64,000 nt of DNA, from positions 1 to 64,000 of the IMG/VR virus record IMGVR_UViG_3300025645_000055; one strand, given 5' to 3'. Below, piece after piece: positions 4,731 to 53,125 of this stretch. A model generated the notes under the pieces. That model had not been told where the DNA came from and made no database searches. It worked only from the letters and a program-made list of their open reading frames with translations. A program made the translations under genes and the position numbers. Source of the DNA: a virus. How positions within the stretch are numbered: the first letter of the stretch is position 1; each line of letters begins with the position of its first letter.

Positions 4731-5229
4731 AACCATTAAAAAGGTTACTGGTTAGAGAGTCAAAGCGTAAGTTTTGGCTTGAAAGGTTCAATTCCTTTCG
4801 AAACCCTTCACGGGGTTTTGATTTTACCTTTTCAGATTAATATTTTTATTATAATTGGGTGTATAGCTTAGTGGTAGAGCACGGATATTACTTCGTGTGA
4901 TTTATAAGTGTTTACATTTTATCCATATACTGGAGTTACTGGCCTTTTTAAGCCCGTGGCGGAGGTTCGATTCCTTCTGCACCCACTAAAAATTGAAACC
5001 ATAGTTTGAGTTACTATACGAAAAAAAAAAGATACTCTTTCTGATTTATTCAATTTTTTTAACATAAAAAAATTAACCATTGTTAAGGTTACTAAACTAT
5101 ATTTAAATTGTAAAAACTACCTTAACAGATTTCTAATTTTTTTTTTATATAAATATTAACCATTGAGAGGGTTACTCCAACGGTCTGTCCCGAAAGGGCT
5201 TGCCGTTACCAAAGCCACCTTTTCAGATT
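4731..5229 (+). repeat. array of five structured RNA modules (AACCAT-9nt stem-TACT ... stem-GATT)
   Basis: Units at 4731-4838, 4890-4940 (permuted, inside a tRNA), 4997-5046, 5075-5131 and 5158-5229, with compensatory stem changes. Confidence 0.8.
4857..4985 (+). tRNA. tRNA-Lys(TTT)-like gene interrupted by a ~57-nt insertion in the anticodon stem
   Basis: Acceptor GGGTGTA/TGCACCC, D-arm GCTT-AGTGGTA-GAGC, T-arm GGAGG-TTCGATT-CCTTC; CGG^GC...CTTTTTAA-GCCCG with insert 4885-4941. Confidence 0.7.
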
Positions 5230-13855: not shown

Positions 13856-15616
13856 ATGAAATTAAAACAATTATTATTATTCGGAATTTTAACCTTAGTA
13901 ATGGGGTTAACAAATGTTAACGCACAAGACTTTTATCTAAACGCTAATGGTGTCACTTGTATGTGTCCAACGGCAAATATTGGTGATAGTGGTGTTGTTA
14001 ATGGTGTTACCTATACTAAAAGAATCGCAACCGAAATAACCGATGTGAACGCATCTACTACTTGTACGAGTGGTATAACAGATATGTCATATTTGTTTGA
14101 TTCTCATTTTTCTTTTAATGGTGACATTGGAAGTTGGGATGTGAGTGATGTTATAAATATGAGTGGGATGTTTTGGGTTGCAACTGATTTTAACCAAAAT
14201 ATAGGAAGTTGGGATGTAAGTAATGTTATTAATATGGACAATATGTTTCGAGAAACAACTTCATTCAATCAATATTTGGGGGATTGGGATGTAAGTAATG
14301 TGATTAATATGGAGGTTATATTTTATGAATCACAATCTATTAATCAAGATTTTAGTAATTGGCAATTTAATCCTAATGTTAATTTGAATTATTTATTCAG
14401 TAAATCTGGGTTGGATACTGATAATTATGATTCCTTATTACAATCCTTTGTGAATCAGAATCTTTTAAATAAAGAGATGGTTGCTGAAGATTTAACATAT
14501 TGTAATGAAACCCCCAGAAATGAATTACTCAATAATATGGGGTGGATAATTACTGAAGATTTATATCTTCAACCTAATTTAGTAGCACCAATTAATCTAA
14601 ATATTGAACCCAACCCAACGACTTGTGTTGCTACTGGTGTAGACCTTGGCACACCATCCACTACAAATGGGTGTGGTGTTGGTGTTGTGACTAATAACGC
14701 ACCTACTGAGTTCCCAATAGGTGAAACAATAGTTACTTGGACACTTACTGATGGAAATGGTATTACGGATACAGACACACAACTTGTTACAGTTACATTA
14801 TCTGTTGATGTTGCTGAGGTTTGTTATGTGACCAGTGATGATGTTGTGGTAACTAATAATAGAATCTTTCTTTTTAATATCGATGGTCAAAATGTTGACA
14901 ATTACGAAGTATTAAGAGAAACAACAACGGGTGGAGTTTATGAAACAATAGGTTTTATCATACCACCAGCAAATTCATTTTTAGACACTACTTCCAATAA
15001 TAACACTCAAGCATATCGTTACAAAGTTCAAACTTTAGATGTGTGTGGTGCAATGTCAATTGAATCACCTTATCATAAAACAATATTATTACAAAGTAGT
15101 ATTGCAGCAAATCAAACAATAAATCTTAGTTGGACACCATATGTTGGTACTGATTATACCACATATAATATTTTCAAACAGATTAATGGTGGAACGTTTG
15201 AATTATTCACTTCAATAGCTTCAACGAATTTAACATATAATGATATTGATGTGGACATAGCATTAAATGACTATGCATACTTTGTTTCAATTGATGTTGG
15301 TGGTTGTGTCGGAACACCATTTATGTCAGAGTCGATTAAATCAAATCAAGATGGTACATTAATACTTGGTATTAATGATAATGAACAATTGGAAAAATCA
15401 ATTATATTATTTCCAAATCCAACGAGTTCAATAGTTAATATTGAATTACCAGATGATTTAACATTAAATGAAGTTAATATAATAAACAATCTTGGTCAAA
15501 TAGTTGCCCAATATAATAGTAAGTCTTTTAATATCGAAGCATTATCAACTGGATTATATTTTTTAAATATCAATACCAGTAAAGGAAGTTTCGTTAAACG
15601 TTTAATTAAAAACTAA
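13856..15616 (+). CDS. BspA/DUF285 repeat surface protein with HYR-like domain and T9SS (Por) C-terminal sorting domain
   Basis: Signal peptide; FNQ.IGSWDVSNV.NM repeats; NNAP..FPIGET.VTWT.TD; LFPNPTSS...LSTGLYFL.I...KRLIK. Confidence 0.9.
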   Translation: MKLKQLLLFGILTLVMGLTNVNAQDFYLNANGVTCMCPTANIGDSGVVNGVTYTKRIATEITDVNASTTCTSGITDMSYLFDSHFSFNGDIGSWDVSDVINMSGMFWVATDFNQNIGSWDVSNVINMDNMFRETTSFNQYLGDWDVSNVINMEVIFYESQSINQDFSNWQFNPNVNLNYLFSKSGLDTDNYDSLLQSFVNQNLLNKEMVAEDLTYCNETPRNELLNNMGWIITEDLYLQPNLVAPINLNIEPNPTTCVATGVDLGTPSTTNGCGVGVVTNNAPTEFPIGETIVTWTLTDGNGITDTDTQLVTVTLSVDVAEVCYVTSDDVVVTNNRIFLFNIDGQNVDNYEVLRETTTGGVYETIGFIIPPANSFLDTTSNNNTQAYRYKVQTLDVCGAMSIESPYHKTILLQSSIAANQTINLSWTPYVGTDYTTYNIFKQINGGTFELFTSIASTNLTYNDIDVDIALNDYAYFVSIDVGGCVGTPFMSESIKSNQDGTLILGINDNEQLEKSIILFPNPTSSIVNIELPDDLTLNEVNIINNLGQIVAQYNSKSFNIEALSTGLYFLNINTSKGSFVKRLIKN

Positions 15617-17723: not shown

Positions 17724-18440
17724 ATGGCAAGAGAAACCTTACTTAGTGGAAAAGCATATGATAATTGTGAAATGCAATCTATCAATGGTGATTTTTTAGC
17801 TTTTACCAGCTTCAAAAGAATGAATTGGTATGTTAGTAGAGGTTTAGCCGAAGTTATTGATGACAACAAGTATCAATTAAATTTTGTGACCAATGGGGAT
17901 TTCGGTGATAAGAGTGATTACTATCGATTAAAACTAGAGAATAAATGTGTTATATGTGGTGATGAAGATAATTTAACTAAGCACCACATCGTACCATATC
18001 AATTTAGAAAGTTTATTCCAATGAAATATAAAAAGGGGTTATCCCGTGATGTGGTTTGTATATGCCATGGTTGTCATAAAGATTATGAAACAATAGCAGA
18101 CATCTTTAAGGAAGAACTACTAATCAAGTATGATTTGGTTGATGACTTAAATATTAGTAACACCCTTGGTAAGTATTTTAATACACTTAAGAATTATAGT
18201 CACTATCAAACTAAAGAAACAATAGAACGTTTATCTAGTTTTATAACAACACATGTTGGTAGACCAATTGATGAAGTACTTAAAGATGATTGGTTAGAAA
18301 CAGTCGATACTTCTAAAAAATTGGTTGATTTAGTTAATGTTGATGACTTTATTATTTTATGGAGAAACCATTTTATAGAAACAACAGAACCAAAGTACTT
18401 ACCAGAAGAATGGGTTAAGGACATAAATAGAGTAATATAA
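17724..18440 (+). CDS. HNH-type protein resembling the C-terminal domain of eukaryotic EXD2
   Basis: YDNC...WY...GL; ENKCVICG...HHIVPYQFRK...DVVCICHGCH; WRNHF...PKYLP..W. Confidence 0.7.
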   Translation: MARETLLSGKAYDNCEMQSINGDFLAFTSFKRMNWYVSRGLAEVIDDNKYQLNFVTNGDFGDKSDYYRLKLENKCVICGDEDNLTKHHIVPYQFRKFIPMKYKKGLSRDVVCICHGCHKDYETIADIFKEELLIKYDLVDDLNISNTLGKYFNTLKNYSHYQTKETIERLSSFITTHVGRPIDEVLKDDWLETVDTSKKLVDLVNVDDFIILWRNHFIETTEPKYLPEEWVKDINRVI

Positions 18441-18619
18441 TGGCAGAAAGAAAAACAAAGTGTGATGTGTGTGATAGTACTAAATTTATAATTCAACATA
18501 CTATACCCCAAAAAATGTTAGTCAAACAATTACAAATGGTACAAGCTAAATGTATATGTGGTAATATTTTTGAGTTCGTAAGACGCACACCTGGAGTGGG
18601 TAGAGGCAGAATTCTATAA
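18440..18619 (+). CDS. small zinc-ribbon protein (59 aa)
   Basis: MAERKTKCDVCDS...KCICGN read by eye. Confidence 0.55.
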   Translation: MAERKTKCDVCDSTKFIIQHTIPQKMLVKQLQMVQAKCICGNIFEFVRRTPGVGRGRIL

Positions 18620-18646
18620 ATTTTTTAAAAGTTTTTCCAAAAAGAC

Positions 18647-18973
18647 TTGCTTTTTATAAAAAGTTGTCTTATATTTGTACCATAATAATTACAATGACTT
18701 GTAGTCGGGGGCTTCTAATCAAACGGGAGTTATACGTAATCATACTGGAAATGGAAGTGTAAGTCTTCCCAGGTCAACAAAAAAAAATAAATTAAAAGTT
18801 TTTTAAATAAAACTTGCTTTATTAAAATAATAGTTCTATATTTGCACTGTTGTTAATTTGAAAGACAACGAAAAAAAATATATTAAAAGTTTTTTAAAAA
18901 AAACTTGCTTTATTAAAATAATAGTCTTATATTTGCAGAGTCGTTTAGAAATAGATGACACGTTCATTAAAAT
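18647..18973 (+). promoter_or_regulatory. three tandem promoters plus a boxA-like element
   Basis: TATATTTG at 18670, 18837 and 18928, each with upstream CTTGCTTT; ~55-bp direct repeat 18791-18846 / 18882-18937; GTTCATTAAAAT at 18962. Confidence 0.75.
18695..18777 (+). ncRNA. degenerate tRNA-like element
   Basis: TGACTTG/CAGGTCA closing stem; T-like arm GGAAG-TGTAAGT-CTTCC; lies just downstream of a promoter. Confidence 0.4.
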
Positions 18974-18980
18974 ATTGAAA

Positions 18981-19960
18981 ATATGGGGTGCTTATACTCC
19001 AGTCTTCGGACAAGGATAGACCAGCAATGGTTTAAAGTAGTAGATTTAGTGTCTATTGCGTTGCATTAACCCTTCGGGGTTAGACAATCCACGTAAGCAT
19101 GATTACCAAACCGTATCAAGGGCATCTGCTGAGATACGAAACCCACAACTTATGGGGATTGAGTAGAAATACAATAGTAAGGTAGTTAGAATCAGATATC
19201 CTAAAAGGGGGTATTGTTTGACTAAACGGTGTAAAAGCTATTGGTTGGATTCATTAAGAAATTTTATGGGACTTATCTTCGGGTAATAAGTGAAATGATT
19301 AACATGATGGTAAAACATTATATCGAGGCGTTGTATTCTTAACCACTCAAAAGGTGGCACGAATGTCAACCAGCAGACACGTCTTGAAACTTAGAGTGAG
19401 GCTTATACCAGAGTTAAATGGTGCATTTTTTTTTGATAAAAATAAAAAGAGAAAGTTCTGTTGGACTAGAACTGAAAATTAAGTTATGCCGTTGAAATAT
19501 ATGGCTGGTTGATTCCTCTCAAGGGATGAGATTAAATTTGATGAGTACATGTCATAAGGAACGGGGTCGCACTCGTTTATTCTCGCAAGGAACCTGGGCA
19601 AAGAAAGCTAGATTATATAAGTTCTATGTAGCAGAGTTATGGTCACTCTAAGACCAACTTAATGTTATCTACTTGAAGGAAACTGATAGTGTGTGAAAAA
19701 GCTGAAAGGCATATAAATGATAACGGGGGCAACCCACTTGCTGAACACTCAAGCATAAATCTGGGCGTACTACTTCAACTTGTTGGAGGGAGTGCAATAG
19801 GTTCAAATCCTTTTACGCCCACTAAATTATATTTCGAGAGTACTAGATAACAAATTCCAGTCGATGTACTCGTTAAGAACCTATCCGCAAGATAGGAATA
19901 TACCCAAGAGTAATGGATTGTGAGGGAATTGTATAATTTAAACTAAGAATCTCATCATAT
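18981..19960 (+). ncRNA. large structured ncRNA, GOLLD-like candidate
   Basis: ~980 nt with no ORF of 60 aa or more; many UUCG/GNRA hairpins; GCGTTGTATTC...CTCAAAAG (19328-19353) and AATCTCA (19948) recall GOLLD landmarks from memory; next to tRNA cluster; boundaries approximate. Confidence 0.55.
19763..19821 (+). ncRNA. 59-nt D-armless tRNA-like mini-RNA (copy 1)
   Basis: GGGCGTA/TACGCCC acceptor, one central hairpin, T-loop TTCAAAT. Confidence 0.65.
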
Positions 19961-20016
19961 GGATGAATATAAGCTTTGTAATGAAGATTATTTTAAATAA
20001 GTTGAGGTTTTTAAAC

Positions 20017-20085
20017 GGGGATTTCGTCTAAGACAAAGGCAGCACCACACCAGGTGTTAATGAAGTATCGAACCTTCAATCCCCA
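20017..20085 (+). ncRNA. atypical tRNA-like RNA with 6-nt anticodon loop ACACCA
   Basis: GGGGATT/AATCCCC; GCACC-ACACCA-GGTGT; T-arm TGAAG-TATCGAAC-CTTCA. Confidence 0.6.
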
Positions 20086-20165
20086 CAAATATAGTTGGTT
20101 GGACTATAATAGGATTATGGTACCCCTTTGAAGGGTTTAATGTTAGAAACTTAATTTTATAAACT

Positions 20166-20233
20166 GCGAGTTTCGTCTAAGCTAAGACGCTATCCCACCA
20201 GATAGAAATGAAGTATCGAATCTTCGACTTGCA
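20166..20233 (+). ncRNA. atypical tRNA-like RNA with 6-nt anticodon loop CCACCA
   Basis: GCGAGTT/GACTTGC; CTATC-CCACCA-GATAG; T-arm GAAG-TATCGAAT-CTTC. Confidence 0.6.
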
Positions 20234-20238
20234 CAAAT

Positions 20239-20406
20239 TTTGAAGTGGTGAAAGGAAGACACCCTACGGAATATAAAACTGTCCTTTGAGAATGGTGTGT
20301 GGAGCAACTGTGATTAGTACCTCCAACAGTAAAGTAGAGTCTAACCGACTAATAATCAAAAAGTCGGAACAATTAGAATAGTTAGTTTCATGGCTAACCT
20401 TCAAAA
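20239..20406 (+). ncRNA. enlarged Leu-like tRNA-like RNA (168 nt)
   Basis: TTTGAAG/CTTCAAA; D-arm GTG-AAAGGAAGA-CAC; CTAC/GTAG enclosing a long insert; CCGACT/AGTCGG arm; T-like GTTAG/CTAAC. Confidence 0.45.
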
Positions 20407-20408
20407 AT

Positions 20409-20467
20409 GGGCGTACTATCACAAGTTATTGTGAGAAGTGTGTTAGGTTTAAATCCTTTTACGCCCA
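20409..20467 (+). ncRNA. 59-nt D-armless tRNA-like mini-RNA (copy 2)
   Basis: Same acceptor and 3-prime end as copy 1; central hairpin TCACAA-GTTA-TTGTGA. Confidence 0.65.
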
Positions 20468-20497
20468 CTATAGTTTCGAAAACTTAAATTGAGAAAC

Positions 20498-20572
20498 CGA
20501 GAGGTAGCTCAGTTTGCTCAGAGCGTCACCCATTGGGGGTGGAGGTCGTTGGTTCGAATCCAACCCTCTCGA
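20498..20572 (+). tRNA. tRNA with Pro-like body; anticodon ambiguous (loop CATTGGG)
   Basis: C1-G72, A73; TCACC-CATTGGG-GGTGG gives A33 and TTG in standard register, TGG if shifted by one. Confidence 0.7.
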
Positions 20573-20661
20573 CAAAAATTAAAATAAATTAACAAAAAAC
20601 GTAACTTTAATATAGTTACACATATTTAATAGAAAGGGATAAACCCTAAACAATAGAAATT

Positions 20662-20766
20662 ATGATGAATTATACGACAACATATCAAAAGCAGTATCCG
20701 CAAGGGGGGAAACCTAGTGGGCTGGACTTGTCGTGTATTTACTCTAAAGGTAAAACAGGTGTGTAA
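20662..20766 (+). CDS. putative leader peptide (34 aa)
   Basis: MMNYTTTYQKQYPQGGKPSGLDLSCIYSKGKTGV, followed by a terminator. Confidence 0.4.
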   Translation: MMNYTTTYQKQYPQGGKPSGLDLSCIYSKGKTGV

Positions 20767-20793
20767 ATAAATCAATTACATAACTTAAACGGT

Positions 20794-20829
20794 AAGCTCA
20801 GCTATAAAGAAATTTAGTTGGGCTTTTTT
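20794..20829 (+). terminator. rho-independent terminator inside the tRNA cluster
   Basis: AAGCTCAGCTA...TAGTTGGGCTT followed by TTTT. Confidence 0.7.
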
Positions 20830-20845
20830 CATGCCCAAATTTCAA

Positions 20846-20940
20846 CGGGTAATGTGCGAGTGGTTTAAGCAATCGGTCTTGGAAGCCGATGACAATTTCA
20901 AGAAGGTTATTGTCCGTAGGTTCGAATCCTACTTACCCGA
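20846..20940 (+). tRNA. tRNA with TGG (Pro) anticodon and long variable arm
   Basis: CGGGTAA/TTACCCG; TCGGT-CT TGG AA-GCCGA; V-arm GACAAT/ATTGTC. Confidence 0.8.
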
Positions 20941-20948
20941 CTAAACAT

Positions 20949-21021
20949 CGGGATGTATATCAATTGGTAGATTACGTGCTTTGGGAGTACGAGGTTGCTG
21001 GTTCGAGTCCAGTCATCCCGA
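20949..21021 (+). tRNA. tRNA-Pro(TGG)
   Basis: CGGGATG/CATCCCG; CGTGC-TT TGG GA-GTACG. Confidence 0.92.
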
Positions 21022-21031
21022 CAGAATGAAA

Positions 21032-21043
21032 GTTCATTGACAT
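21032..21043 (+). promoter_or_regulatory. boxA-like antitermination element
   Basis: GTTCATTGACAT resembles rRNA-operon boxA sequences. Confidence 0.55.
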
Positions 21044-21117
21044 GTTGGTTAAGTAAAATATAGAAGTCTAGGGAGCCATTGCTCTTAAAACGTCCAACCT
21101 AGAAACTTCTATAATAT

Positions 21118-21190
21118 TGGGATATGGTGTAATTGGTAACACGTCTGTTTTTGGTGCAGAAGAGTATGGGTTCGAGACCCGTTGTCCCAA
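21118..21190 (+). tRNA. tRNA-Gln(TTG)
   Basis: TGGGATA/TGTCCCA; TCTGT-TT TTG GT-GCAGA. Confidence 0.9.
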
Positions 21191-21197
21191 CTAATAT

Positions 21198-21270
21198 TGC
21201 CCTATGGTATAACGGTTAATACGTCTGGTTTTGAACCAGAAGATTGGGGGTTCGAATCCGTCTAGGGTAA
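21198..21270 (+). tRNA. tRNA-Gln(TTG)
   Basis: TGCCCTA/TAGGGTA; TCTGG-TT TTG AA-CCAGA. Confidence 0.88.
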
Positions 21271-21343
21271 CAATAAAGATATTTGGGAGACTGTTATTAA
21301 TTCATAGAACCTATTGCGAGTGGTATCATAGAATTAAAATTAT

Positions 21344-21416
21344 TGGGGTATGGTGTAATGTGTAACATTCAAGATTTTGGTCCTTGAGAGTGTCGGTTCG
21401 AGTCCGTCTACCCCAA
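21344..21416 (+). tRNA. tRNA-Gln(TTG)
   Basis: TGGGGTA/TACCCCA; CAAGA-TT TTG GT-CCTTG. Confidence 0.85.
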
Positions 21417-21417
21417 C

Positions 21418-21563
21418 TATATTGTGTGCGTAACTAAGGTATTTAGGAGTATACATAACAAGTAGTTGACTTAGTACTATCAATGAAAAGTATGTGGAAA
21501 ATGATACAGTTTGAACGGAATCCCATGTTGGGGAGAGATATGAGTGCAAGCCTCATCAATATA
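21418..21563 (+). ncRNA. enlarged tRNA-like element
   Basis: TATATTG/CAATATA closing stem with adjacent T-like arm ATGAG-TGCAAGC-CTCAT. Confidence 0.35.
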
Positions 21564-21567
21564 AATT

Positions 21568-21649
21568 GGGAGTATTGAGCAACTGGTTGCTCAGCAGACT
21601 GTAAATCTGTGGTCTTACGACATTGGGGGTTCGAATCCCTCTACTCCCA
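21568..21649 (+). tRNA. tRNA-Tyr(GTA)
   Basis: GGGAGTA/TACTCCC; GCAGA-CT GTA AA-TCTGT; V-arm. Confidence 0.92.
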
Positions 21650-21654
21650 CAATT

Positions 21655-21735
21655 GGGAACTAAAAGCCATTCGGATATGGCATCGGGACTGTAAATCTCG
21701 TCCTTCGGGGAGTGGTTCGAGTCCACTAGGTCCCA
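21655..21735 (+). tRNA. tRNA-Tyr(GTA), atypical D-arm
   Basis: CGGGA-CT GTA AA-TCTCG; V-arm CC-TTCG-GG; T-arm AGTGG/CCACT. Confidence 0.8.
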
Positions 21736-21808
21736 CAATTGGTCACAGATGAAACGACCAGTCTTCACAGAAAGACTTCCTCATGAGGGGATATAAATAA
21801 AGCTGCAT

Positions 21809-21878
21809 GGGTTGTGAAAGGATACTAGCCGAGGTTGTAACCCTCTAGCTTTGTAGGGTTCGAGTCCCTATCAGCCCA
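21809..21878 (+). tRNA. degenerate tRNA-Tyr(GTA)
   Basis: GGGTTG/CAGCCC; GAGG-TT GTA AC-CCTC; T-arm TAGGG/CCCTA; no clear D-stem. Confidence 0.55.
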
Positions 21879-21883
21879 CAACT

Positions 21884-22016
21884 TGACTATAATTGGTCGG
21901 CAATGTTAATGTAGTGTTTGAGAGCAAACCGTATAATCTCGGCAAACCATCATTAATGAATGAGTTATGTATGTTACATCATAACCTTTTGTGGGGTTCG
22001 ACTCCCCAATGGTCAA
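21884..22016 (+). ncRNA. enlarged tRNA-like RNA (133 nt)
   Basis: TGACTAT/ATGGTCA; T-arm TGGGG-TTCGACT-CCCCA; long arm GTTAATG/CATTAAT, GTTTG/CAAAC; V-arm GTTATG/CATAAC. Confidence 0.6.
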
Positions 22017-22056
22017 CACGCTAGGCTAGTAAGTGTCCAACACGCTAGGCTAATAT

Positions 22057-22128
22057 TCCTTCGTAACTCAGAGGCAGAGTACCGTGCTTTTAACACGGGA
22101 GTCGTGATATCGTAATTCACCGAGGGAA
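22057..22128 (+). tRNA. tRNA-Lys(TTT)
   Basis: TCCTTCG/CGAGGGA; CCGTG-CT TTT AA-CACGG; atypical T-loop. Confidence 0.82.
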
Positions 22129-22207
22129 CAAAAATTAGTAGCATATGCTCGATGAACGACTATGTACATGTAAGTAGGGATACTAGTCATGTTACTAATT
22201 TTAATTT

Positions 22208-22280
22208 GCACCCGAAGCTCAAGTGGACGGGCTTCCCGCTTTTAACGGGAAGGTTACGGGTTCGAGGCCCGTGGGGTGCA
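22208..22280 (+). tRNA. tRNA-Lys(TTT)
   Basis: GCACCC/GGGTGC; TCCCG-CT TTT AA-CGGGA. Confidence 0.88.
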
Positions 22281-22285
22281 CAAAT

Positions 22286-22369
22286 GCGATGTTAGTGTAA
22301 GTCAAAGATTCTAGATTAAACACGCAACCCATAGGGGTTGAGATGGGGGTTCAAGTCCTTTGCATCGCT
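22286..22369 (+). ncRNA. atypical tRNA-like RNA (Gly-like acceptor, enlarged D-loop, 6-nt anticodon loop)
   Basis: GCGATGT/GCATCGC-U73; CAACC-CATAGG-GGTTG. Confidence 0.55.
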
Positions 22370-22374
22370 CAAAT

Positions 22375-22468
22375 GATAGTATAGTGAAATATTCTGTGTA
22401 GACGTACATATAAAAATCACACCTTCTGCTTAGGTTGGAATAATTGGTATGAAATCCAATTACTATCT
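22375..22468 (+). ncRNA. degenerate tRNA-like element
   Basis: GATAGTA/TACTATC; T-like ATTGG-TATGAAAT-CCAAT; enlarged D region. Confidence 0.4.
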
Positions 22469-22473
22469 TAATT

Positions 22474-22544
22474 GCCGATATCGTATAACGGTATTACGTG
22501 CCCTTGGTAGGGGTGAAATCTCAGCTCGTTTCTGAGTATCGGCT
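22474..22544 (+). tRNA. tRNA-Thr(GGT)
   Basis: GCCGATA/TATCGGC; TGCCC-TT GGT AG-GGGTG; atypical T-loop CTCGTTT. Confidence 0.8.
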
Positions 22545-22703
22545 CTAAGTTTATTAATAAGTGGGTAAAACCTTGAGGCATCCCCCTCGGACTATGACGG
22601 CTTATATTTGACGATATAAGTGTTCAAGTTTCTGGTCAAGCAATGCACCAGGTTTGGTGGAATCACCTTACAAAAGCGAGGATTAATATTAATAGACTTA
22701 ACT

Positions 22704-22786
22704 GCGAATATCGTATAATGGAGGGGAAACCCGTATTATAGTGGCCTTCCAAGTCACGGATGAGAGTTCGATTCTCTCTATTCGCT
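22704..22786 (+). tRNA. tRNA-Gly(TCC) with GAAA hairpin in the D-loop
   Basis: GCGAATA/TATTCGC; GTGGC-CT TCC AA-GTCAC; GGG-GAAA-CCC insert. Confidence 0.85.
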
Positions 22787-22794
22787 CAATAATT

Positions 22795-22881
22795 GCCTCT
22801 ATAGCTCAGTTGGTTTGGCGAAAGCCTTAGAGCAGCCCCCTTTTAAGGGGCAGGTCGTAGGTTCGAATCCTACTGGGGGTA
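22795..22881 (+). tRNA. tRNA-Lys(TTT) with GAAA hairpin in the D-loop
   Basis: GCCCC-CT TTT AA-GGGGC; GGC-GAAA-GCC insert. Confidence 0.85.
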
Positions 22882-22940
22882 CTAAGTTAGTTATGACATT
22901 ATGATTTGAGGCTTAATCATCCTCTTTAACTAACTTTATT

Positions 22941-23011
22941 GCGAGATGTAGCTTAATGGCAAAGCATCGGCCTTCCAAGTCGAGGATGCGGTTCGACCCC
23001 GACATTTCGCA
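22941..23011 (+). tRNA. tRNA-Gly(TCC), 8/4-like acceptor/T stems
   Basis: GCGAGATG/CATTTCGC (8 bp); TCGGC-CT TCC AA-GTCGA; short T-stem. Confidence 0.8.
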
Positions 23012-23019
23012 CTAAAAAT

Positions 23020-23102
23020 GCCCCCCTAGTATAATGGAGACGAAAGTCGTATTACCTTGGATTTGTAACCCAAAGATATCAGTTCGATTCTGATGGGGGG
23101 CT
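23020..23102 (+). tRNA. tRNA-Thr(TGT) with GAAA hairpin in the D-loop
   Basis: GCCCCCC/GGGGGGC; TTGGA-TT TGT AA-CCCAA; GAC-GAAA-GTC insert. Confidence 0.85.
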
Positions 23103-23110
23103 CCATACCA

Positions 23111-23195
23111 GCCGATGTCGCATAGTGGTCTATTGCACTTGATTTGTAATCAAGAGAAAGAAATTTCATCGTCAGTTCGAATCTGACCATCGGCT
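23111..23195 (+). tRNA. tRNA-Thr(TGT) with long variable arm
   Basis: GCCGATG/CATCGGC; CTTGA-TT TGT AA-TCAAG; V-arm GAAA-GAAA-TTTC. Confidence 0.85.
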
Positions 23196-23210
23196 CACAT
23201 ATTTATTAGT

Positions 23211-23672
23211 ATGAAAAACTTAATCAACAAAATCTGGGCGTTCATCAAACTAATGCTACCTAATAGCTGGTTTCCAGAAGACGTAATAATTTACGCTATC
23301 GAAGATGATATGAAATCGTGGAAACTTATTGAAGTTCTCATTGTTAGAGAAATAAATAAGTATAGAATCGAAAATGGTCTTAAACCAGTATCTGGTGAGT
23401 TAAACACCAAGCTAGAAACAAAGATAAGAAGCGACTTTATGTCGGATGAAGAAAAACTATCCCACGATGGTTTTGGTGTATCATCAAGAAGACTTAAAGA
23501 TATGGGGTTTAAAAGTGTTGGTGAAATTATAGCCTATGGTTATACAAATGGTGGTGATGTGGTTCATGCTTGGAAAAATAGTCCAAGTCATAATCGTGTA
23601 TTACTTGGAAATTATAAATACCTGGGTGTTAGTAAAACTGATAGATATTATTGTGTAATATTTACCAGATAA
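23211..23672 (+). CDS. CAP (SCP) domain protein
   Basis: INKYR..NGL...LSHDG...GEIIAYG...WKNSPSH..VLL. Confidence 0.9.
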   Translation: MKNLINKIWAFIKLMLPNSWFPEDVIIYAIEDDMKSWKLIEVLIVREINKYRIENGLKPVSGELNTKLETKIRSDFMSDEEKLSHDGFGVSSRRLKDMGFKSVGEIIAYGYTNGGDVVHAWKNSPSHNRVLLGNYKYLGVSKTDRYYCVIFTR

Positions 23673-23674
23673 AT

Positions 23675-23787
23675 GCGAGTGTAGCTCAGTTGGTTAGAGC
23701 GTTATTTAAATCATGCGGGAGTAGCTCAATGGTAGAGCGATACGTTACCAACGTATAGGTTGAGGGTTCGAATCTGATTACTCGCCA
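23675..23787 (+). pseudogene. chimeric tRNA-Gly-like locus: orphan 5-prime half (23675-23701) plus tRNA body with ACC anticodon (23715-23787)
   Basis: ATACG-TT ACC AA-CGTAT; T-stem unpaired; 3-prime TACTCGC pairs better with upstream GCGAGTG. Confidence 0.6.
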
Positions 23788-23791
23788 AATT

Positions 23792-23819
23792 AAGGATGAC
23801 ATAAATGTTATCCTTTTTT
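23792..23819 (+). terminator. terminator closing the tRNA cluster
   Basis: AAGGATGACAT-AA-ATGTTATCCTT followed by a T run. Confidence 0.75.
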
Positions 23820-23947
23820 ATTTGTTTTATTCGATTAATTGAACTATATTTGTTAAATGATAGGAGTATGAGTCCGTACATAAAAATTGGTCGAATAGGA
23901 CATCGCTACCAAAACCTATCATTTTTTAATAAATAAAACAAAGAATT

Positions 23948-24187
23948 ATGATTAGAATTATTAAAGTATTAATGGATTTCGGGATGGATTTTGAATATGA
24001 AAATCGTGGGTCTGAAGGTGAGAAGATTGTTTCCTATGAACTAGGGTTAGATATATCCAACCAAAATGGTAAGATATATTACTCTTGTGGTTGTGAACCA
24101 GAAACAGTTGAAGATGTAGATTTTGAATACATGCGACTTGCTAGTGAAGTACAAGACGAATGTATCGCACAAACAGCATCCTTTTAA
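23948..24187 (+). CDS. hypothetical protein
   Basis: ORF track. Confidence 0.65.
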   Translation: MIRIIKVLMDFGMDFEYENRGSEGEKIVSYELGLDISNQNGKIYYSCGCEPETVEDVDFEYMRLASEVQDECIAQTASF

Positions 24188-24188
24188 T

Positions 24189-24512
24189 ATGAGTGATGAT
24201 GTAGCTTGCCCATATTGTGGCACATACCAAGAGATTAACCACGATGATGGTTATGGGTATGAAGAAGATGGAAATCATGAACAACAATGTTATAATTGTG
24301 AAAAGAATTTTATCTTCACAACCGCAATAATATATCATTATGAAGGTTATAAAGCAGATTGTTTGAATGGTGATGAACACTTATATAAACCAGTGCCAAC
24401 TGCACCTAGGTGTTACGCTAAAATGAGGTGTGAAATGTGTGGTATTGAAAGAGAACCAACGGAAGATGAAAAAGTAACATATAGTATACCAGAAAAACCG
24501 AATTATGATTAA
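24189..24512 (+). CDS. zinc-binding hypothetical phage protein
   Basis: CPYCG...CYNC...C...CEMCG; likely start ATG 24189. Confidence 0.7.
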
Positions 24513-32755: not shown

Positions 32756-32938
32756 ACATGTTAAGAGTGGGTGGAATAAGGGTAACTATTGTGGTTGCCA
32801 CTATTGTACTGGTACTACTTATGAAGATTGGTTGGAGTTAAAACATAATCTAAAACCTAAACATAAAAATACTCTATAAATGTTTGCTTATTAAATATAT
32901 TATACTTATCTTTGTCCTATAATTGTAAAACAATATAT

Positions 32939-33922
32939 ATGGATATTAAGAAAACAGTAAACCCAGAAGATTATAGTGTTGGTGTGATAGTTGCACGGTT
33001 TCAAACCCACGAATTACATGACCCACACAAAGAGATGATTGATATCGTCTGTGATAATCATAAAAAGGTACTTATTTTCCTTGGAATATCTACAATTCCA
33101 AATACCAAAAGAAACCCATTAGATTTTGCCACTAGAATGGTGATGATACAAGAATATGCACCAAAAGCGGTGATTATACCAATTAAGGATAATCGTTCTA
33201 ATTTAGTATGGAGTAAATATTTAGATTCACAAATATCATTAATATTTGGTGATGCTAATGTTAAACCATTACTATATGGTAGTAGAGATTCTTTTATCCC
33301 ATTCTATGAGGGTAGATTTGATACTGCTGAATTAACAAGCGATGTTATGATTAGTGGTACTGAAATAAGAAATAACGTTTCCAAAGAAATCCTAATGTCT
33401 CAAGACTTCCGAGCTGGGGTTATACACGCAAATTACGCACAAAGAGCAGTATCATATCCAACGGTTGATGTTGTTGCATATAATGATAAAGGTCAAATCT
33501 TAATGGCTAAGAAACCAAACGAAGACAAGTATAGATTTGTTGGTGGATTTGTTGACACAAGTGATAATAGACTTGAACATTCTGCTAGACGAGAGTTTAT
33601 GGAAGAAACTGGTGGTAGTGGTGAAATAGGTGAATTAAAATATGTTTGTTCACAAGCCATTGATGATTGGAGATATAAGAAAGAAGACTCTGGTATTATG
33701 ACCACACTCTTTATTGGTTATTTCAGATGGGGTTATGTAAGACCCTCAGATGATATTAGTGAACTTAAATGGATGGACTTCTCTAGATTCTTAGATATGG
33801 GTTATATTAAACATAATATGATGCCAGAACACGAAACCTTAATGATTACCCTTGTTAATAAAATTAAAGATGGTACATTAGGTATTAAAACACTTGAAGA
33901 ACAAAATACAGAAAAACTATAA
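32939..33922 (+). CDS. bifunctional NMN adenylyltransferase / Nudix ADP-ribose pyrophosphatase (NadM-Nudix)
   Basis: VARFQ..LH..H, RNPL.F..R, SGTEIR; Nudix box GGFVD......SARREFMEETG. Confidence 0.9.
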   Translation: MDIKKTVNPEDYSVGVIVARFQTHELHDPHKEMIDIVCDNHKKVLIFLGISTIPNTKRNPLDFATRMVMIQEYAPKAVIIPIKDNRSNLVWSKYLDSQISLIFGDANVKPLLYGSRDSFIPFYEGRFDTAELTSDVMISGTEIRNNVSKEILMSQDFRAGVIHANYAQRAVSYPTVDVVAYNDKGQILMAKKPNEDKYRFVGGFVDTSDNRLEHSARREFMEETGGSGEIGELKYVCSQAIDDWRYKKEDSGIMTTLFIGYFRWGYVRPSDDISELKWMDFSRFLDMGYIKHNMMPEHETLMITLVNKIKDGTLGIKTLEEQNTEKL

Positions 33923-33923
33923 T

Positions 33924-35585
33924 ATGGAAACATTAGAACTAAATAAACAAGGGGTTAAGACAGTTACCTTACCCAAGCGTAAGATAGCAGACGTACCTAG
34001 ACTATTATGGGCAGATGCCTATACTGCTGGGTCAAATAAGTTTCAATCGGCTAAAGCTAAACAAGAATCTGTTTACTATGTCACATTCCGTAGACAACTA
34101 TCTACTGTTAATCCACTCTTATATAATGTGGGTGATGATAGAATTATCTTCGGTGGTCTACAACGACTATTAGAGAAGATTTTCTATGAACCAGTAACAC
34201 ATAAAGAGATTGATGATGCTAAGGAATTTCTTTCTACATTCAAAGCCACAACATTAGGTTATGCAGAATATGAGTTTCCAGAGGAAATGTGGAGAACAGT
34301 TGTAGACGAATATAACGGTAGACCACCAATCCTTATTAAAGGGATGCCAGAGGGTTCTGTTGTATATCCTAATGAACCAGTTGTACAAGTTACATCAATG
34401 GTTGATGGTATGGGTGAATTAGCAGCTTGGTTTGAATCTACCATCCTTAAGGTATGGGCAGTTTCAGAACGTATCACACAGAACGAACATTGGATTACAA
34501 AACTTAAAGGTATGATTCATGGAATTGAACCAGATTTAGATGATGAATCTGTTCACTTTCAAGCATCACTTATGCTTACCGATTTCGGTGACAGAGGTGG
34601 TATAACACCAGAAGAATCAGAAGAATTAGGTATGGCTCACTTATATACGTTCCCAGGTACAGACACATGTTCTGGGGCATATCAAGCTTGGTATAATGCT
34701 AATAAAACACCAGTGGGTAGTAGTGTTAATGCACTTGCCCATAGAAACGTACAAGCATATAAATTAGAAAATGATGTTTATGAAGCGATTTATAACTCAT
34801 GTAAAGATAACGAAATCATTTCGATGGTTGCCGATTGTTACGATTTCTACTATGCAGTAAGAGAATACTTATTACCACTAGCACTCCGTAGTATCAAAGA
34901 AGAAAATGGAAAGGTTGTAGTGGGTAGACCAGACTCTGGAAATGCAGTAGAACAAGTCCTATGGCTTTGTAGACTAGCTAAGAGATATGGTTTATATACC
35001 ACAAAGGTAATTGATGGTGTTGAGTGGTACTTCGGTACAACACTTAAGTTCATCGAGGGTGATGGAATGAAATATGATACAATGTGGGAAATCATTCAAG
35101 CATTAGAAAAAGAAGGATTTGCACCACACGGTTGGGGATTATTTGGCGTAGGTGGTGGACTAAGAAATGGTATCAAAAGAGATAACCTTTCTGCTAAATA
35201 CGCACTATGTTCAATGGGTTACGACCACGTTGGTGTTACAAAGTTCTCTGAAACACTAGGTAAAACTACTTTACCTGGACCTTTCAAAGTTTTAAGAAGT
35301 GCCGAAGCATTACATAATAAAGAAACCATAGTGTTTGATACTGAAAAAGGAGAAGATGCAATGGTGGTTTACTATGATGGTTCTAATATATACAAACCAT
35401 TTGGTGAGGGTCAAGATGATGACTTCTTAGTTATTAGAGCAAGGATTAGAGAACAGTGGGATAGTATGCCACTTAATCTAACATCTGATACTAATCATAA
35501 TTATCCAGCTAGTAAAGCAATACTTGCAAAACGTATTGAATTACTTAAGGAATATGCACCTAATAAACACGCTAAAAACTACTAA
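33924..35585 (+). CDS. nicotinamide phosphoribosyltransferase (NAMPT/NadV)
   Basis: DAY, GLQ..L, P..IKG.PEGS, DFG.RG, GTD, S.V.D.YD, RPDSG, GDG, G.GG.L. Confidence 0.88.
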   Translation: METLELNKQGVKTVTLPKRKIADVPRLLWADAYTAGSNKFQSAKAKQESVYYVTFRRQLSTVNPLLYNVGDDRIIFGGLQRLLEKIFYEPVTHKEIDDAKEFLSTFKATTLGYAEYEFPEEMWRTVVDEYNGRPPILIKGMPEGSVVYPNEPVVQVTSMVDGMGELAAWFESTILKVWAVSERITQNEHWITKLKGMIHGIEPDLDDESVHFQASLMLTDFGDRGGITPEESEELGMAHLYTFPGTDTCSGAYQAWYNANKTPVGSSVNALAHRNVQAYKLENDVYEAIYNSCKDNEIISMVADCYDFYYAVREYLLPLALRSIKEENGKVVVGRPDSGNAVEQVLWLCRLAKRYGLYTTKVIDGVEWYFGTTLKFIEGDGMKYDTMWEIIQALEKEGFAPHGWGLFGVGGGLRNGIKRDNLSAKYALCSMGYDHVGVTKFSETLGKTTLPGPFKVLRSAEALHNKETIVFDTEKGEDAMVVYYDGSNIYKPFGEGQDDDFLVIRARIREQWDSMPLNLTSDTNHNYPASKAILAKRIELLKEYAPNKHAKNY

Positions 35586-51126: not shown

Positions 51127-53046
51127 ATGAATAAAATAGAAATAGGAGACATACTAGAAGGAACAATACATTTTAACAAATTTGGTTCTGCATATCTAGT
51201 AAGTAATAAATTAAAAAAAGACATCTACATACATAAAAATAACACTAATAAATCTATTCATTTAGATACTATTAGTCTTAGGGTTGTGAAAGGAGTAAAT
51301 CGTTCAATAGAAGGTGTCGTTGAAGAAGTAATAGAACGGTTTAAAACAACATTCGTTGGTACAATACAAATTAATAATGGGTTTGGGTTTCTGGTTGCAG
51401 ATTCCGATAAAATGCCATTTGATTTGTTTATTCCACAAATTAAATTAATGGGTGCAACCAACGGTCAAAAGGTGGTTGGTAGATTGGTTGATTGGCTTGA
51501 TGGTATGAAAACACCAAACGGTGAAATCATTGAGATACTTGGTGATATTAACGATAACGATGTTCAAACAAATGCTATCGTTCACCAGTATGAATTACCA
51601 GGTGTGTTCGATGAAGATGTTAAAGCAGAGTCTGAAATGATATCTGATGTGATTACTGATGAAGATATTTCAAATAGGTTAGACCTAAGAGAGATATTAA
51701 CATTTACAATTGACCCAGATACCGCAAAAGACTTTGATGATGCACTATCATACGAAGACTTACCAAATGGTGATATAAAGATTGGAATACATATAGCAGA
51801 TGTTAGTCATTATGTGAGACCTGGAACTGCATTAGATAAAGAAGCATACGAAAGAGGAACATCCATCTATTTAACCGACACGGTTATTCCGATGCTCCCA
51901 GAGAGACTTTCTAATGGGATATGTTCACTAAGACCTAATGAAGATAAACTAACGTTCTCAGCCATCTTTACGTTCAATAAGAACTATGAGGTTATTGATG
52001 AATGGTTTGGTAGAACGGTAATACATTCTAACCATAGACTTACATATGGTGAGGCAGAAAATCTTATATTATTAAGTAAACCCACTAGTGATGATGAAAT
52101 GGAAAGTGTGTTACCAGTAATAAATGATATTGCAAAGGAATTAAGGAGTATTAGAGATGATGATGGTGCAATTACATTTCAACGTGATGAATTAAAGTTC
52201 TTCACCAATGGAGCTGGTGAGTTGGATATAATGGTGAAACCAACATTAAGTTCTAATATTCTTATTGAAGAATTCATGCTACTAGCCAACAGAAGGGTTG
52301 GTAGATTATTAAAGAGTAAGAAGATTCCGACTGTTAATAGAATACACGAAGAACCTAATCCAGAGAAGCTTGGTGATGTTCAAAAATCACTTAAAGAGTT
52401 TGGATATAATGTTGATTTATTAAGTCCTAAAAACTTAAGGAGAAACATTAACAACTTATTAAGAGAAGTACATGGTAAGGATGATGAGCATTTGGTGAAT
52501 AACCTATTGCTTAGGTCGATGCAAAAGGCAGTATATTCAACAGAACACGCAGGTCACTTTGGTTTGTCGTTTGATGATTATACACACTTTACATCACCAA
52601 TTAGACGTTACCCAGATATCATGGTTCATAGAATACTTAATCGAGTGTTGGAAGGTAAAAGCCAACATAAGGAGAGTAAACTATCCACAAGATGTAATCA
52701 CTTATCCAATATGGAAGTTAGAGCACAAAAAGCATCTAGGGAGTCTATCAAGTATAAGCAATGTGAGTACATGAAAGAAAGGGTTGGTAAACTATTTACT
52801 GGTGTTGTTTCATCAATAAACACACATGGGATATATGTTGAAATAGTAGGTGCAAACTGTGATGGTTTCATCAATACTTCATCATATTCTAAAGATGAAT
52901 CATATACCATTAATTCAAATAAAGTATCTACAATTGGAAACGATAGTGGAAAGACAATTACATTAGGTGATAAGATACCAATTCTAATTAAAAGTGTAGA
53001 CTTTGTAAGTAAAACTATCAACGTTAAGCATTTTAATTTAAAATAA
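51127..53046 (+). CDS. rnr: ribonuclease R (RNB family)
   Basis: TIDP.TAKDFDDA, HIADVSHYV, LIEEFMLLAN, HFGL..Y.HFTSPIRRYPD, C-terminal S1. Confidence 0.93.
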   Translation: MNKIEIGDILEGTIHFNKFGSAYLVSNKLKKDIYIHKNNTNKSIHLDTISLRVVKGVNRSIEGVVEEVIERFKTTFVGTIQINNGFGFLVADSDKMPFDLFIPQIKLMGATNGQKVVGRLVDWLDGMKTPNGEIIEILGDINDNDVQTNAIVHQYELPGVFDEDVKAESEMISDVITDEDISNRLDLREILTFTIDPDTAKDFDDALSYEDLPNGDIKIGIHIADVSHYVRPGTALDKEAYERGTSIYLTDTVIPMLPERLSNGICSLRPNEDKLTFSAIFTFNKNYEVIDEWFGRTVIHSNHRLTYGEAENLILLSKPTSDDEMESVLPVINDIAKELRSIRDDDGAITFQRDELKFFTNGAGELDIMVKPTLSSNILIEEFMLLANRRVGRLLKSKKIPTVNRIHEEPNPEKLGDVQKSLKEFGYNVDLLSPKNLRRNINNLLREVHGKDDEHLVNNLLLRSMQKAVYSTEHAGHFGLSFDDYTHFTSPIRRYPDIMVHRILNRVLEGKSQHKESKLSTRCNHLSNMEVRAQKASRESIKYKQCEYMKERVGKLFTGVVSSINTHGIYVEIVGANCDGFINTSSYSKDESYTINSNKVSTIGNDSGKTITLGDKIPILIKSVDFVSKTINVKHFNLK

Positions 53047-53125
53047 TACCAAATATAGTTGAAACTCTATTTTAATAGAACTATCTTTGTCATCAATAAT
53101 AACTATAATAACATCCTTAACCTAT

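Follow-up and report, generated by a model that had tools for sequence, protein, structure and literature searches.

A putative leader-peptide attenuator ahead of a phage tRNA array, with matching leaders at other phage tRNA arrays

Why and when phages use their tRNA genes is a long-standing question, to which the usual answers are codon-usage matching and the replacement of host tRNAs lost to shutoff or defence. The locus described here raises the question of what a short open reading frame (ORF) followed by a terminator-like hairpin does directly ahead of a phage tRNA array. It lies at 20662-20829 of IMG/VR virus record IMGVR_UViG_3300025645_000055, of which we analysed the first 64 kb (the window) of 73,385 bases; the completeness of the record is ~20% by CheckV. 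An initial annotation, made from the letters alone, proposed a translation-coupled attenuator, and all defining sequence features of such an element are present. We conclude, with a probability of about 80%, that the element is a ribosome-mediated (leader-peptide) transcription attenuator that gates the tRNA array. The features on which this reading turns are the ORF, its codon run and the array, as follows:

20662-20766, + strand: leader ORF, 34 codons plus TAA, product MMNYTTTYQKQYPQGGKPSGLDLSCIYSKGKTGV
20671-20715, + strand: regulatory run YTTTYQKQYPQGGKP, codons 4-18, Y T T T Y Q K Q Y P Q G G K P
20846-23786, + strand: tRNA array, Pro x2, Gln x3, Tyr x2 (+1), Lys x2 (+1), Thr, Gly x2, Thr (+1), Gly

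The amino acid set used in these analyses was defined by the ARAGORN types of the 14 tRNAs at 20846-23786, all of which are Pro, Gln, Tyr, Lys, Thr or Gly, and was not fitted to the ORF. The 15 consecutive codons at 20671-20715 all fall within {P,Q,Y,K,T,G}, and the array anticodons can read 14 of them. Across the six frames of the 64 kb, runs within this set have a length of 6 (42 cases) or 7 (14 cases), no run has a length of 8-14, and a single run reaches 15. Because the set accounts for 31% of the codons in the long ORFs of the phage, base composition cannot explain the 15-codon run. The description of a 34-codon ORF rich in these six amino acids near its start therefore stands, and the run is unique in the window. 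G-ending codons, which are rare in the phage, make up 6 of the 15 in comparison to 1.4 expected from the phage genes; they may tune sensitivity or may reflect RNA-structure constraints. The start context of the leader, aatagaaattATG, is common to its relatives and resembles the other gene starts of the phage, which, like the leader ORF, have no Shine-Dalgarno sequence. Among 1.84 billion protein representatives, the leader peptide matched only itself and one spurious repeat protein.

Two details of the initial annotation had to be adjusted. The element had been placed in the middle of a tRNA operon; it stands instead at the head of the array, with one tRNA-Gln (20498-20573) and non-coding RNAs upstream. 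The content of the array had been given as exactly Pro, Gln, Tyr, Lys, Thr and Gly, which holds for 14 of 14 ARAGORN-typed tRNAs. Using relaxed ARAGORN settings, a third Tyr tRNA was found at 21800-21879, and Rfam added tRNA matches at 22823-22881 and 23020-23102, with anticodons, read by eye only, of Lys UUU and Thr UGU. However, relaxed ARAGORN types 23020-23105 as Asn (att) or ?(Tyr|Ile), i.e., possibly outside the six amino acids. A further tRNA-like element at 22286-22370 has no clear anticodon.

The RNA of the leader region is predicted to form the mutually exclusive helices of an attenuator from four strands:

20671-20680, + strand: strand 1, 5' arm of the anti-antiterminator hairpin, inside the regulatory codons; pairs with 20728-20737
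20719-20737, + strand: strand 2; pairs with strand 1 (20728-37, inner helices to 20713-24) or with strand 3 (20720-34)
20789-20804, + strand: strand 3, terminator 5' arm (20794-20804) and the 5 nt preceding it; forms the antiterminator with strand 2
20815-20829, + strand: strand 4, terminator 3' arm (20815-20825) plus T-run (20824-20829)

The spacer at 20574-20845 (272 nt) folds better than 200 of 200 shuffles (z = -3.87), and its minimum-energy fold consists of the long 1:2 hairpin, two small hairpins and the terminator stem. The 1:2 hairpin, ATACGACAA/TTGTCGTGT, pairs 20671-20680 with 20728-20737, overlaps the ORF as initially noted, has an energy of -21.9 kcal/mol and encloses three short helices (inner pairing 20692-20705/20713-20724). 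The terminator that had been claimed after the ORF is recovered in silico as an 11-bp stem of -13.0 to -13.3 kcal/mol, formed by AAGCUCAGCUA (20794-20804) and UAGUUGGGCUU (20815-20825) around a 10-nt loop and followed by the T-run; a simple terminator scan, limited to loops of up to 8 nt, skipped it. Between the stem and tRNA-Pro, which starts at 20846, lie 20 nt. The mimicry of the terminator 3' arm TAGTTGGGCT within the ORF was likewise confirmed, as TAGTGGGCT (20714-20722) duplicates this arm and the copy lies within strand 2. The antiterminator duplex, 20720-20734 with 20789-20803, has an energy of -15.9 kcal/mol; pairing with strand 3 as good as that of strand 2 was reached by 0.6% of 1560 genomic 41-mers and by 3.5% of 2000 dinucleotide shuffles of strand 2. 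We also folded nascent transcripts that end before strand 4, with the footprint of a ribosome masked. With the ribosome masked at codons 20671-20701, strand 2 captures the terminator 5' arm, and with the ribosome masked at the stop codon, strand 3 is left free.

Relatives with the same array were found using a 238-amino-acid protein encoded upstream of the leader (17724-18440), whose relatives share ~30-45% identity. A profile of nine of these led to 80 metagenome and 78 viral loci, of which 30 of 158 have at least three tRNAs, and a degenerate pattern identified two further contigs with a Pro-Gln-Tyr-Lys-Thr-Gly array. Other searches were negative: blastn of 19800-23900 against GenBank phages returned tRNA-level matches only; single-protein scans of viral contigs with the 238-amino-acid protein and the CAP-domain protein encoded in the array identified no relatives; none of seven UDP-glucose dehydrogenase relatives (L002-L008) has tRNAs, nor has the 63-kb record of a phrog_1745 relative (L010); and an exact pattern from a tRNA-like repeat had no matches. 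In total, we identified six further distinct P/Q/Y/K/T/G leaders (L016, L025, L022, which is identical to L094, L171, L092 and L170), i.e., seven with that of the window. In five loci of 11-21 kb (L016, L022, L025, L092 and L094; four distinct sequences), the longest P/Q/Y/K/T/G run precedes the first tRNA-Pro by 206-222 nt and lies on its strand; L170 and L171, read directly, have the same layout of leader, terminator and array. The leader ORFs of these relatives have 31-33 codons (e.g., MTTYTTYTKQYQPNGGKPQGQLSMRCNNDEDWN and MTTYTTYTKQYQPNGGKPQGQLSMRC..) and are clearly homologous to that of the window, and most have the start context tagaaattATG.

Behind each of these leader ORFs lies a strong terminator, AAACCCAGTTGA..TCAACTGGGTTTTTT. 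Over the six relatives, pairing reaches 98.5% in the terminator and 88.9% in the proposed antiterminator. The terminator 5' arm has two substitutions, C>T in L092 and T>C in L170, and for each of them both the 3' arm and the ORF strand carry a compensating change. Such double compensation is the signature expected of two mutually exclusive helices that would share a strand; the covariation sample is small, with the observed values attained in 12 of 500 and 41 of 500 shuffles. The window departs from the relatives in both terminator arms, AAGCTCAGCTA/TAGTTGGGCTT, and the ORF segment TAGTGGGCTGG, at the same codons, has changed in concert. RNAalifold on the six relatives returned the same long 1:2 hairpin, in which the regulatory codons form the 5' half, while the antiterminator strand lies inside the 3' half; for this reason, the regulatory codons are conserved at the nucleotide level.

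For each tRNA cluster in the 158 loci, we then located the longest run of the cluster's own amino acids. Leaders with such runs precede arrays of unrelated content:

L023, 143 nt upstream: run FEFDFFAAEADF; array Asp-Glu-Phe-Phe-Ala-Glu-Ala-Asp
L137, 119 nt upstream: run WSSRRRSSSR; array Ser-Ser-Ser-Arg-Arg-Trp-Arg
L167, 123 nt upstream: run VVGQQGAAAV; array Val-Ala-Gly-Gly-Gln-Gln
L103, 128 nt upstream: run SSSRSSR; array Arg-Ser x4
L026 and L035, upstream: runs KTTTNKNK and TKNTNKT; array Lys-Lys-Asn-Asn-Thr, its first tRNA 8 nt past the terminator
L115, 593 nt upstream, beyond an intervening ORF: run RWSWRSSSSSS; array Ser/Trp/Arg
L143, upstream: run in MGGYPSAIDADYGCGTGM..; array Asp/Gly/Ala/Tyr/Met/Pro
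L164, upstream: run in ..ILNIQAVIGQAG..; array Gly-Ile-Ala-Gln
L023, second array, upstream: Leu/Val-rich leader; array Val/Pro/Leu

These leaders are ATG-initiated ORFs of 23-34 codons, and the terminator 5' arm begins 20-33 nt past the stop codon. The T-run usually ends 6-34 nt ahead of the first tRNA, and in these cases there is no room for a promoter before that tRNA. Of 17 leaders, 10 have a TAnnTTTG box at 49-61 nt and 2 others at 106-118 nt ahead of the ATG; in L026 and L035, a TTGACA-type promoter-like sequence before the leader was seen by eye, while the pattern match returned none.

To quantify the match between leaders and arrays, we took the 350 nt ahead of each of 28 testable, non-redundant arrays and scored the array's true amino acid set against random sets of the same size. 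Of the 28 regions, 10 favour the true set at p<=0.006 and 14 at p<=0.05. At the same thresholds, the controls gave 0 and 1 of 28 (antisense), 0 and 3 of 27 (downstream) and 1 and 1 of 23 (1000-1350 nt upstream). One of the 14 regions at p<=0.05, L134 (LLELE), was a false lead with no short ORF. The codons also match: of 202 leader codons for array amino acids, 186 are readable by the anticodons of the same array, and arrays with Arg(UCU/CCU) have AGA/AGG in the leader, while an array with Arg(ACG) has CGU/CGC. Thus, the idea that leader codons track tRNA content, which had been put forward as a check on relatives, is supported by homologous leaders before the same array, by own-amino-acid leaders at unrelated arrays and by the codon-anticodon match.

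The potential for antitermination recurs as well. In 14 leaders, duplexes between the leader ORF and the terminator arm have a mean energy of -12.6 kcal/mol for cognate and -7.7 kcal/mol (standard deviation 2.4) for non-cognate combinations, and 0 of 20000 permutations attain the cognate mean; the ORF strand that pairs with the arm lies between codons 16-29, mostly soon after the run. In masked nascent folds of 13 leaders, most have antiterminator pairs as long as the A site has not left the run and lose most or all of them once it has. This step is clearest in L016, L023, L137, L167 and L103, and there is no clear step in L092. Anatomy, statistics, conservation, covariation and recurrence at other arrays are in this way established at the level of sequence.

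The design is also present in cultured Cellulophaga phages. The tRNA region of phi4:1 (NC_021788.1; locus L175) contains two adjacent units, each with a promoter-like site, a leader, a terminator and a sub-array; the leader parts of the units are at about 87,060-87,195 and 87,989-88,170 of the record:

phi4:1 unit 1, leader at L175 9063-9131, unannotated: TTTG..TAtgTTTG promoter-like site, ORF MKIQRLHLQELEQPIISGGTGV, terminator, Pro-Glu-Gln-His-Leu-Leu-Arg
phi4:1 unit 2, L175 9990-10109: same promoter-like sequence, gp075 (..TKTGITVIDKTKGARAYLGDTVIG), terminator, Ala-Lys-Ile-Gly-Met-Asp-Thr-Val-Arg-Met-Tyr

Of the 29 scored residues of gp075, 26 are in the set of unit 2 and only 4 in that of unit 1. 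The first leader is less discriminating, with 11 of 22 residues in each set; its signal is the 11-residue run QRLHLQELEQP, which matches the first set only. The gene gp075 is annotated as hypothetical with a TTG start, begins inside the promoter-like sequence and has no in-frame ATG; it is probably a leader ORF with a later start. The case of gp076, which precedes Ser/Trp/Phe, is ambiguous, since neither a run nor a terminator is clear there. The layout recurs in phage phi17:2.

In RNA, the leader is covered by contigs of three of three metatranscriptome runs, and in every run a contig extends past the terminator and into tRNA-Pro. These contigs span 20609-20902, 20755-20902 (with 20605-20753 covering the ORF) and 20648-20862 and match the window with few differences or none. 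Leader, terminator and tRNA are, therefore, present as one joined sequence in RNA libraries. Two contigs from different runs both end at 20902, inside the insertion of tRNA-Pro. The array stretch at 21858-22762 is uncovered, which is not evidence either way because mature tRNAs are poorly captured and contigs cannot show levels.

From the anatomy of the element, we infer leader translation, stalling and a choice between termination and readthrough. Transcription would enter from upstream, and a ribosome would begin the 34-codon leader. When Pro, Gln, Tyr, Lys, Thr and Gly aminoacyl-tRNAs are plentiful, the ribosome would clear codons 4-18 and strand 2 (20719-37); once it is past strand 2, the 1:2 hairpin would re-form, strands 3 and 4 would fold as the terminator, and the polymerase would halt at 20829. 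When any of these tRNAs is scarce, the ribosome would stall in the run, covering strand 1 and leaving strand 2 free to pair with newly made strand 3, so that no terminator would form and the polymerase would read into the array. The outcome would be a negative feedback in which the phage's supply of the listed tRNAs tracks translational demand. Compatible causes of stalling are the codon demand of late infection, the loss of host tRNAs and the action of defence nucleases, e.g., anticodon nucleases.

Several observations weigh against this scheme. Alternative folding, suggested initially as a check, gave exclusive 1:2, 2:3 and 3:4 helices and a switch in the nascent folds, but the full-length minimum-energy fold retains the terminator under every ribosome mask; antitermination must, therefore, be kinetic, and classical attenuators likewise switch kinetically. 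In 5 of 13 leaders (L022, L171, L170, L115 and L035), the fold without a ribosome already has at least eight antiterminator pairs. Only four U follow the terminator stem of the window. The codon usage of its leader is unlike that of the phage genes, which fits sensor tuning and equally fits non-coding sequence. The window leader also lacks the TAnnTTTG promoter carried by 12 of 17 leaders, because tRNA-Gln occupies that position. In the six relatives, a 57-69-nt spacer (57 in L170) separates the terminator from tRNA-Pro and could hide a promoter. This spacer contains a 22-nt motif, TTCTTTGAAATATTGTATTTTT, and a small hairpin in L016 (17246-17297), L025, L022, L171 and L092, while the form in L170 has diverged; the motif could be a processing signal or a second promoter. 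No TAnnTTTG was seen by eye in the spacers, nor does TTCTTTGAAATATTGTATTTTT match TAnnTTTG, and the motif is absent from the window, where the gap is only 20 nt. At 14 of 28 arrays, no matching run was found at p<=0.05; some of these arrays may start outside the locus or have interrupted runs, and L029, whose leader is the same as that of L026, falls below the run threshold because one substitution splits its run. Finally, the leader contigs have low depths (2.4-4.6), DNA carry-over is possible, and the contigs give neither ends nor levels.

Which other explanations could account for these data? Leader translation might sense tRNA supply and act through precursor processing or stability or through Rho access. 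Heavy processing of tRNA precursors, the two contigs that end at 20902 inside tRNA-Pro and the persistence of the terminator in full-length folds would all fit such a step. On the other hand, every leader has a canonical GC-rich hairpin and T-run at a fixed 20-33 nt past its stop codon, and the terminator 5' arm covaries with the strand competing for it; we regard control at another step as unlikely. We hold it a little less probable still that the ORF simply encodes a small protein and ends in a terminator of its own, the array being transcribed independently and the match in composition having no regulatory meaning. It is true that the order of the peptide as well as its composition is conserved among the P/Q/Y/K/T/G relatives, and that in these the terminator and tRNA-Pro stand 57-69 nt apart, with a motif that five of the six share. 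However, arrays of unrelated content are matched by leaders that are themselves unrelated in sequence; a gap of 6-34 nt separates the end of the terminator from the first tRNA in the window and in most other cases; and the ORF strand covaries with the terminator 5' arm. Moreover, nucleotide conservation is far above that predicted from a neighbouring protein at ~40% identity and, therefore, points to RNA constraint.

Direct sensing of tRNAs by codon-anticodon contact, ribosome-free and in the manner of a T-box, would also explain why leader codons match array anticodons. Against this, no T-box is among the Rfam matches up to E 5 in 18300-24300; 16 of 16 leaders have the run in one frame between a start (ATG in 15; not gp075) and a stop; ORF length is confined to 22-34 codons where the start is clear; and, to our knowledge, ten to eighteen consecutive specifiers are without precedent. 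We consider this mode of sensing very improbable. That the ORF arose by chance in a structured spacer or a decayed tRNA is hardly credible: the array does contain several degenerate tRNA-like pieces and short ORFs are common in A+T-rich DNA, but nothing else in the window equals the 15-codon run, six further distinct leader sequences have kept it, and the control regions have no such signal. Ribosome-mediated attenuation of transcription thus remains our preferred reading.

Transcription of the leader likely starts well upstream, where three tandem promoter-like sites match a Bacteroidota-type pattern. The further features of the region are as follows:

18646-18677, 18813-18844 and 18904-18935, + strand: three tandem promoter-like sites, CTTGC..TAnnTTTG, Bacteroidota type, by pattern match
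19323-19755: GOLLD-like RNA (RF02032), Rfam, 57.1 bits, E 3e-13, below the gathering score of 150
20498-20573, + strand: tRNA-Gln (UUG), directly upstream of the leader, at the position of the relatives' own leader promoter
23211-23672: CAP-domain ORF inside the array
23792-23825, + strand: terminator-like hairpin plus T-run closing the array

The three matches at 18646-18935 compare to 0.33 expected, and none of 100 shuffles reaches three; these sites likely represent the start of a transcription unit that would run into the leader. Downstream of them, the order is GOLLD-like RNA, two tRNA-like elements, tRNA-Gln, leader and tRNA array. The GOLLD-like match is confined to 19323-19755, and the leader interval lies outside it. 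L016 and L025 also have GOLLD-like matches ahead of their leaders, weaker ones of 39 and 32 bits, respectively. Metatranscriptome contigs on 18862/19038-19726 from three runs have a word depth of 381-1235, compared to 2-7 elsewhere, although contig depth is a poor measure of expression. Two contigs of the GOLLD-like RNA run into sequencing adapter at 19726 and 19753, which suggests that its 3' end lies just before the tRNA-like element at 19762. The tRNA-like elements at 19762-19825 and 20407-20470 both carry GGTTYAAATCCTTTTACGCCCACT, with acceptor-like and T-arm-like parts, and neither ARAGORN nor Rfam calls a tRNA in them. The ~580 nt between them hold two similar segments at ~20018-20080 and ~20168-20228, and one metatranscriptome contig of this region (19698-20112, depth 30) represents a variant with 10 differences. 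In L092, a RAGATH-1 hammerhead-like match at 14520-14601 (50.4 bits, gathering score 56.3, E 2e-5) directly precedes the tRNA at 14625-14708, ~350 nt ahead of the leader.

Several tRNAs of the record have unusual shapes. The tRNA-Pro at 20846-20941 is 96 nt long and its variable region bears a hairpin; tRNAs with insertions lie at 20846-20941, 4857-4985 (an Rfam match spanning 129 nt), 22795-22882, 23020-23102 and 23111-23196; and the Lys-like and Thr-like genes of the array have enlarged D-loops. Gaps in the array hold degenerate tRNA-like pieces, namely, the Tyr-like 21800-21879, 22286-22370 and a 5' half at 23673-23700. A first tRNA array at 51-2807 of the window has several copies each of Glu, Asp, Phe and Ala. 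No Glu/Asp/Phe/Ala leader was found for it, but the record begins 50 nt before its first tRNA, so that any leader would be cut off; the L023 leader FEFDFFAAEADF stands ahead of an Asp/Glu/Phe/Ala array that matches it. An ORF within this first array (433-978) encodes a C-terminal HTH_3 domain (E 5e-11); its N-terminus resembles GIY-YIG by eye, a resemblance that Pfam did not confirm. No tRNAs were found in the remainder of the record beyond the window.

Nearly all long ORFs of the window are on the + strand, and the gene content is consistent with a large phage of a Bacteroidota host. Window genes include those for a phrog_1745 protein, a sigma factor, DNA methyltransferases, a type IX secretion system (T9SS) sorting-domain protein, an OmpA-domain protein and parts of ABC transporters. 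The 238-amino-acid protein (17724-18440) has an invariant C..C....KHH.VP motif and no match in Pfam; it is common in large phage contigs, with 424 stretches in metagenome contigs and 79 in viral contigs confirmed by tblastn. Auxiliary genes in 32912-35585, 51127-53046 and 53087-54001 encode a cytidylyltransferase-like/NUDIX fusion and a NAPRTase/NAMPT-like protein (NAD salvage), an RNase R/II-type RNB protein with S1 and cold-shock domains, and a sigma-70 family factor.

Classical leader-peptide attenuators include trpL, hisL, leuL and pheL, as well as the multivalent thrL and ilvL/ivbL. The window element resembles them in its short leader ORF with clustered codons, its predicted 1:2, 2:3 and 3:4 helices, and its putative intrinsic terminator before the regulated genes, and here, too, the proposed stalling would favour readthrough. 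Of these, thrL and ilvL, which read several amino acids, are the nearest analogues of the composite run. By contrast with the classical cases, the regulated genes are tRNAs rather than biosynthesis, transport or synthetase genes, which leaves the mechanism unaffected; the leader lists up to six (window) or ten (phi4:1 gp075) amino acids; and the element is phage-borne, in a Bacteroidota-type host setting without a Shine-Dalgarno sequence. The mechanism is thus classical, and what is new is the regulated genes, the composite leaders and the phage setting. The leader peptide pheM precedes the E. coli phenylalanyl-tRNA synthetase genes pheST. The pheM-pheST attenuator shares with the window leader the control of a component of the translation apparatus for the sensed amino acid, but its output is a synthetase, it senses one amino acid, and it resides in a cellular genome. 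As for cellular tRNA genes, no Phe-rich leader was found upstream of E. coli K-12 pheV, the one case checked, and the pheU/pheV leaders are described as 3-4 nt long (PMC7049720). T-box riboswitches also sense tRNA status and choose between terminator and antiterminator ahead of translation-related genes; without a ribosome, they make direct contact with one uncharged tRNA by means of the T-box sequence and a single specifier codon, whereas the sensor in the window is an ORF. In full-text searches of the literature, we found no paper on leader-peptide or attenuator control of tRNA genes in phage or cell; subscription journals lie mostly outside that scope, and an older report is possible.

The tRNA arrays of phages such as T4, T5 and vibriophages are held to compensate for codon usage or loss of host tRNAs. 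Studies of these arrays address the same genes and the same question, i.e., why phages carry tRNAs. As far as full-text searches show, they treat the tRNA genes as simply expressed, whereas the window array would have its own demand sensor. We think it likely, at somewhat lower confidence than for the window element, that leader-peptide attenuators before tRNA arrays are a widespread, undescribed class of phage regulators that list the amino acids of their array, and largely its codons, so that the phage would measure decoding speed for those tRNAs and top up their supply on demand. The proposed class would span large phages with Bacteroidota-type promoters and others, including the cultured Cellulophaga phages. 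Because phi4:1 and phi17:2 have the same design, bench testing is possible now. The combination of a leader composition that equals the array content with a terminator provides a simple sequence signature for annotating phage tRNA operons. If the reading is correct, textbook attenuation would come to include tRNA genes as targets and composite leaders that list as many as ten amino acids, and tRNA supply in these phages would be actively regulated by demand, with the array on only when its own codons are decoded slowly.

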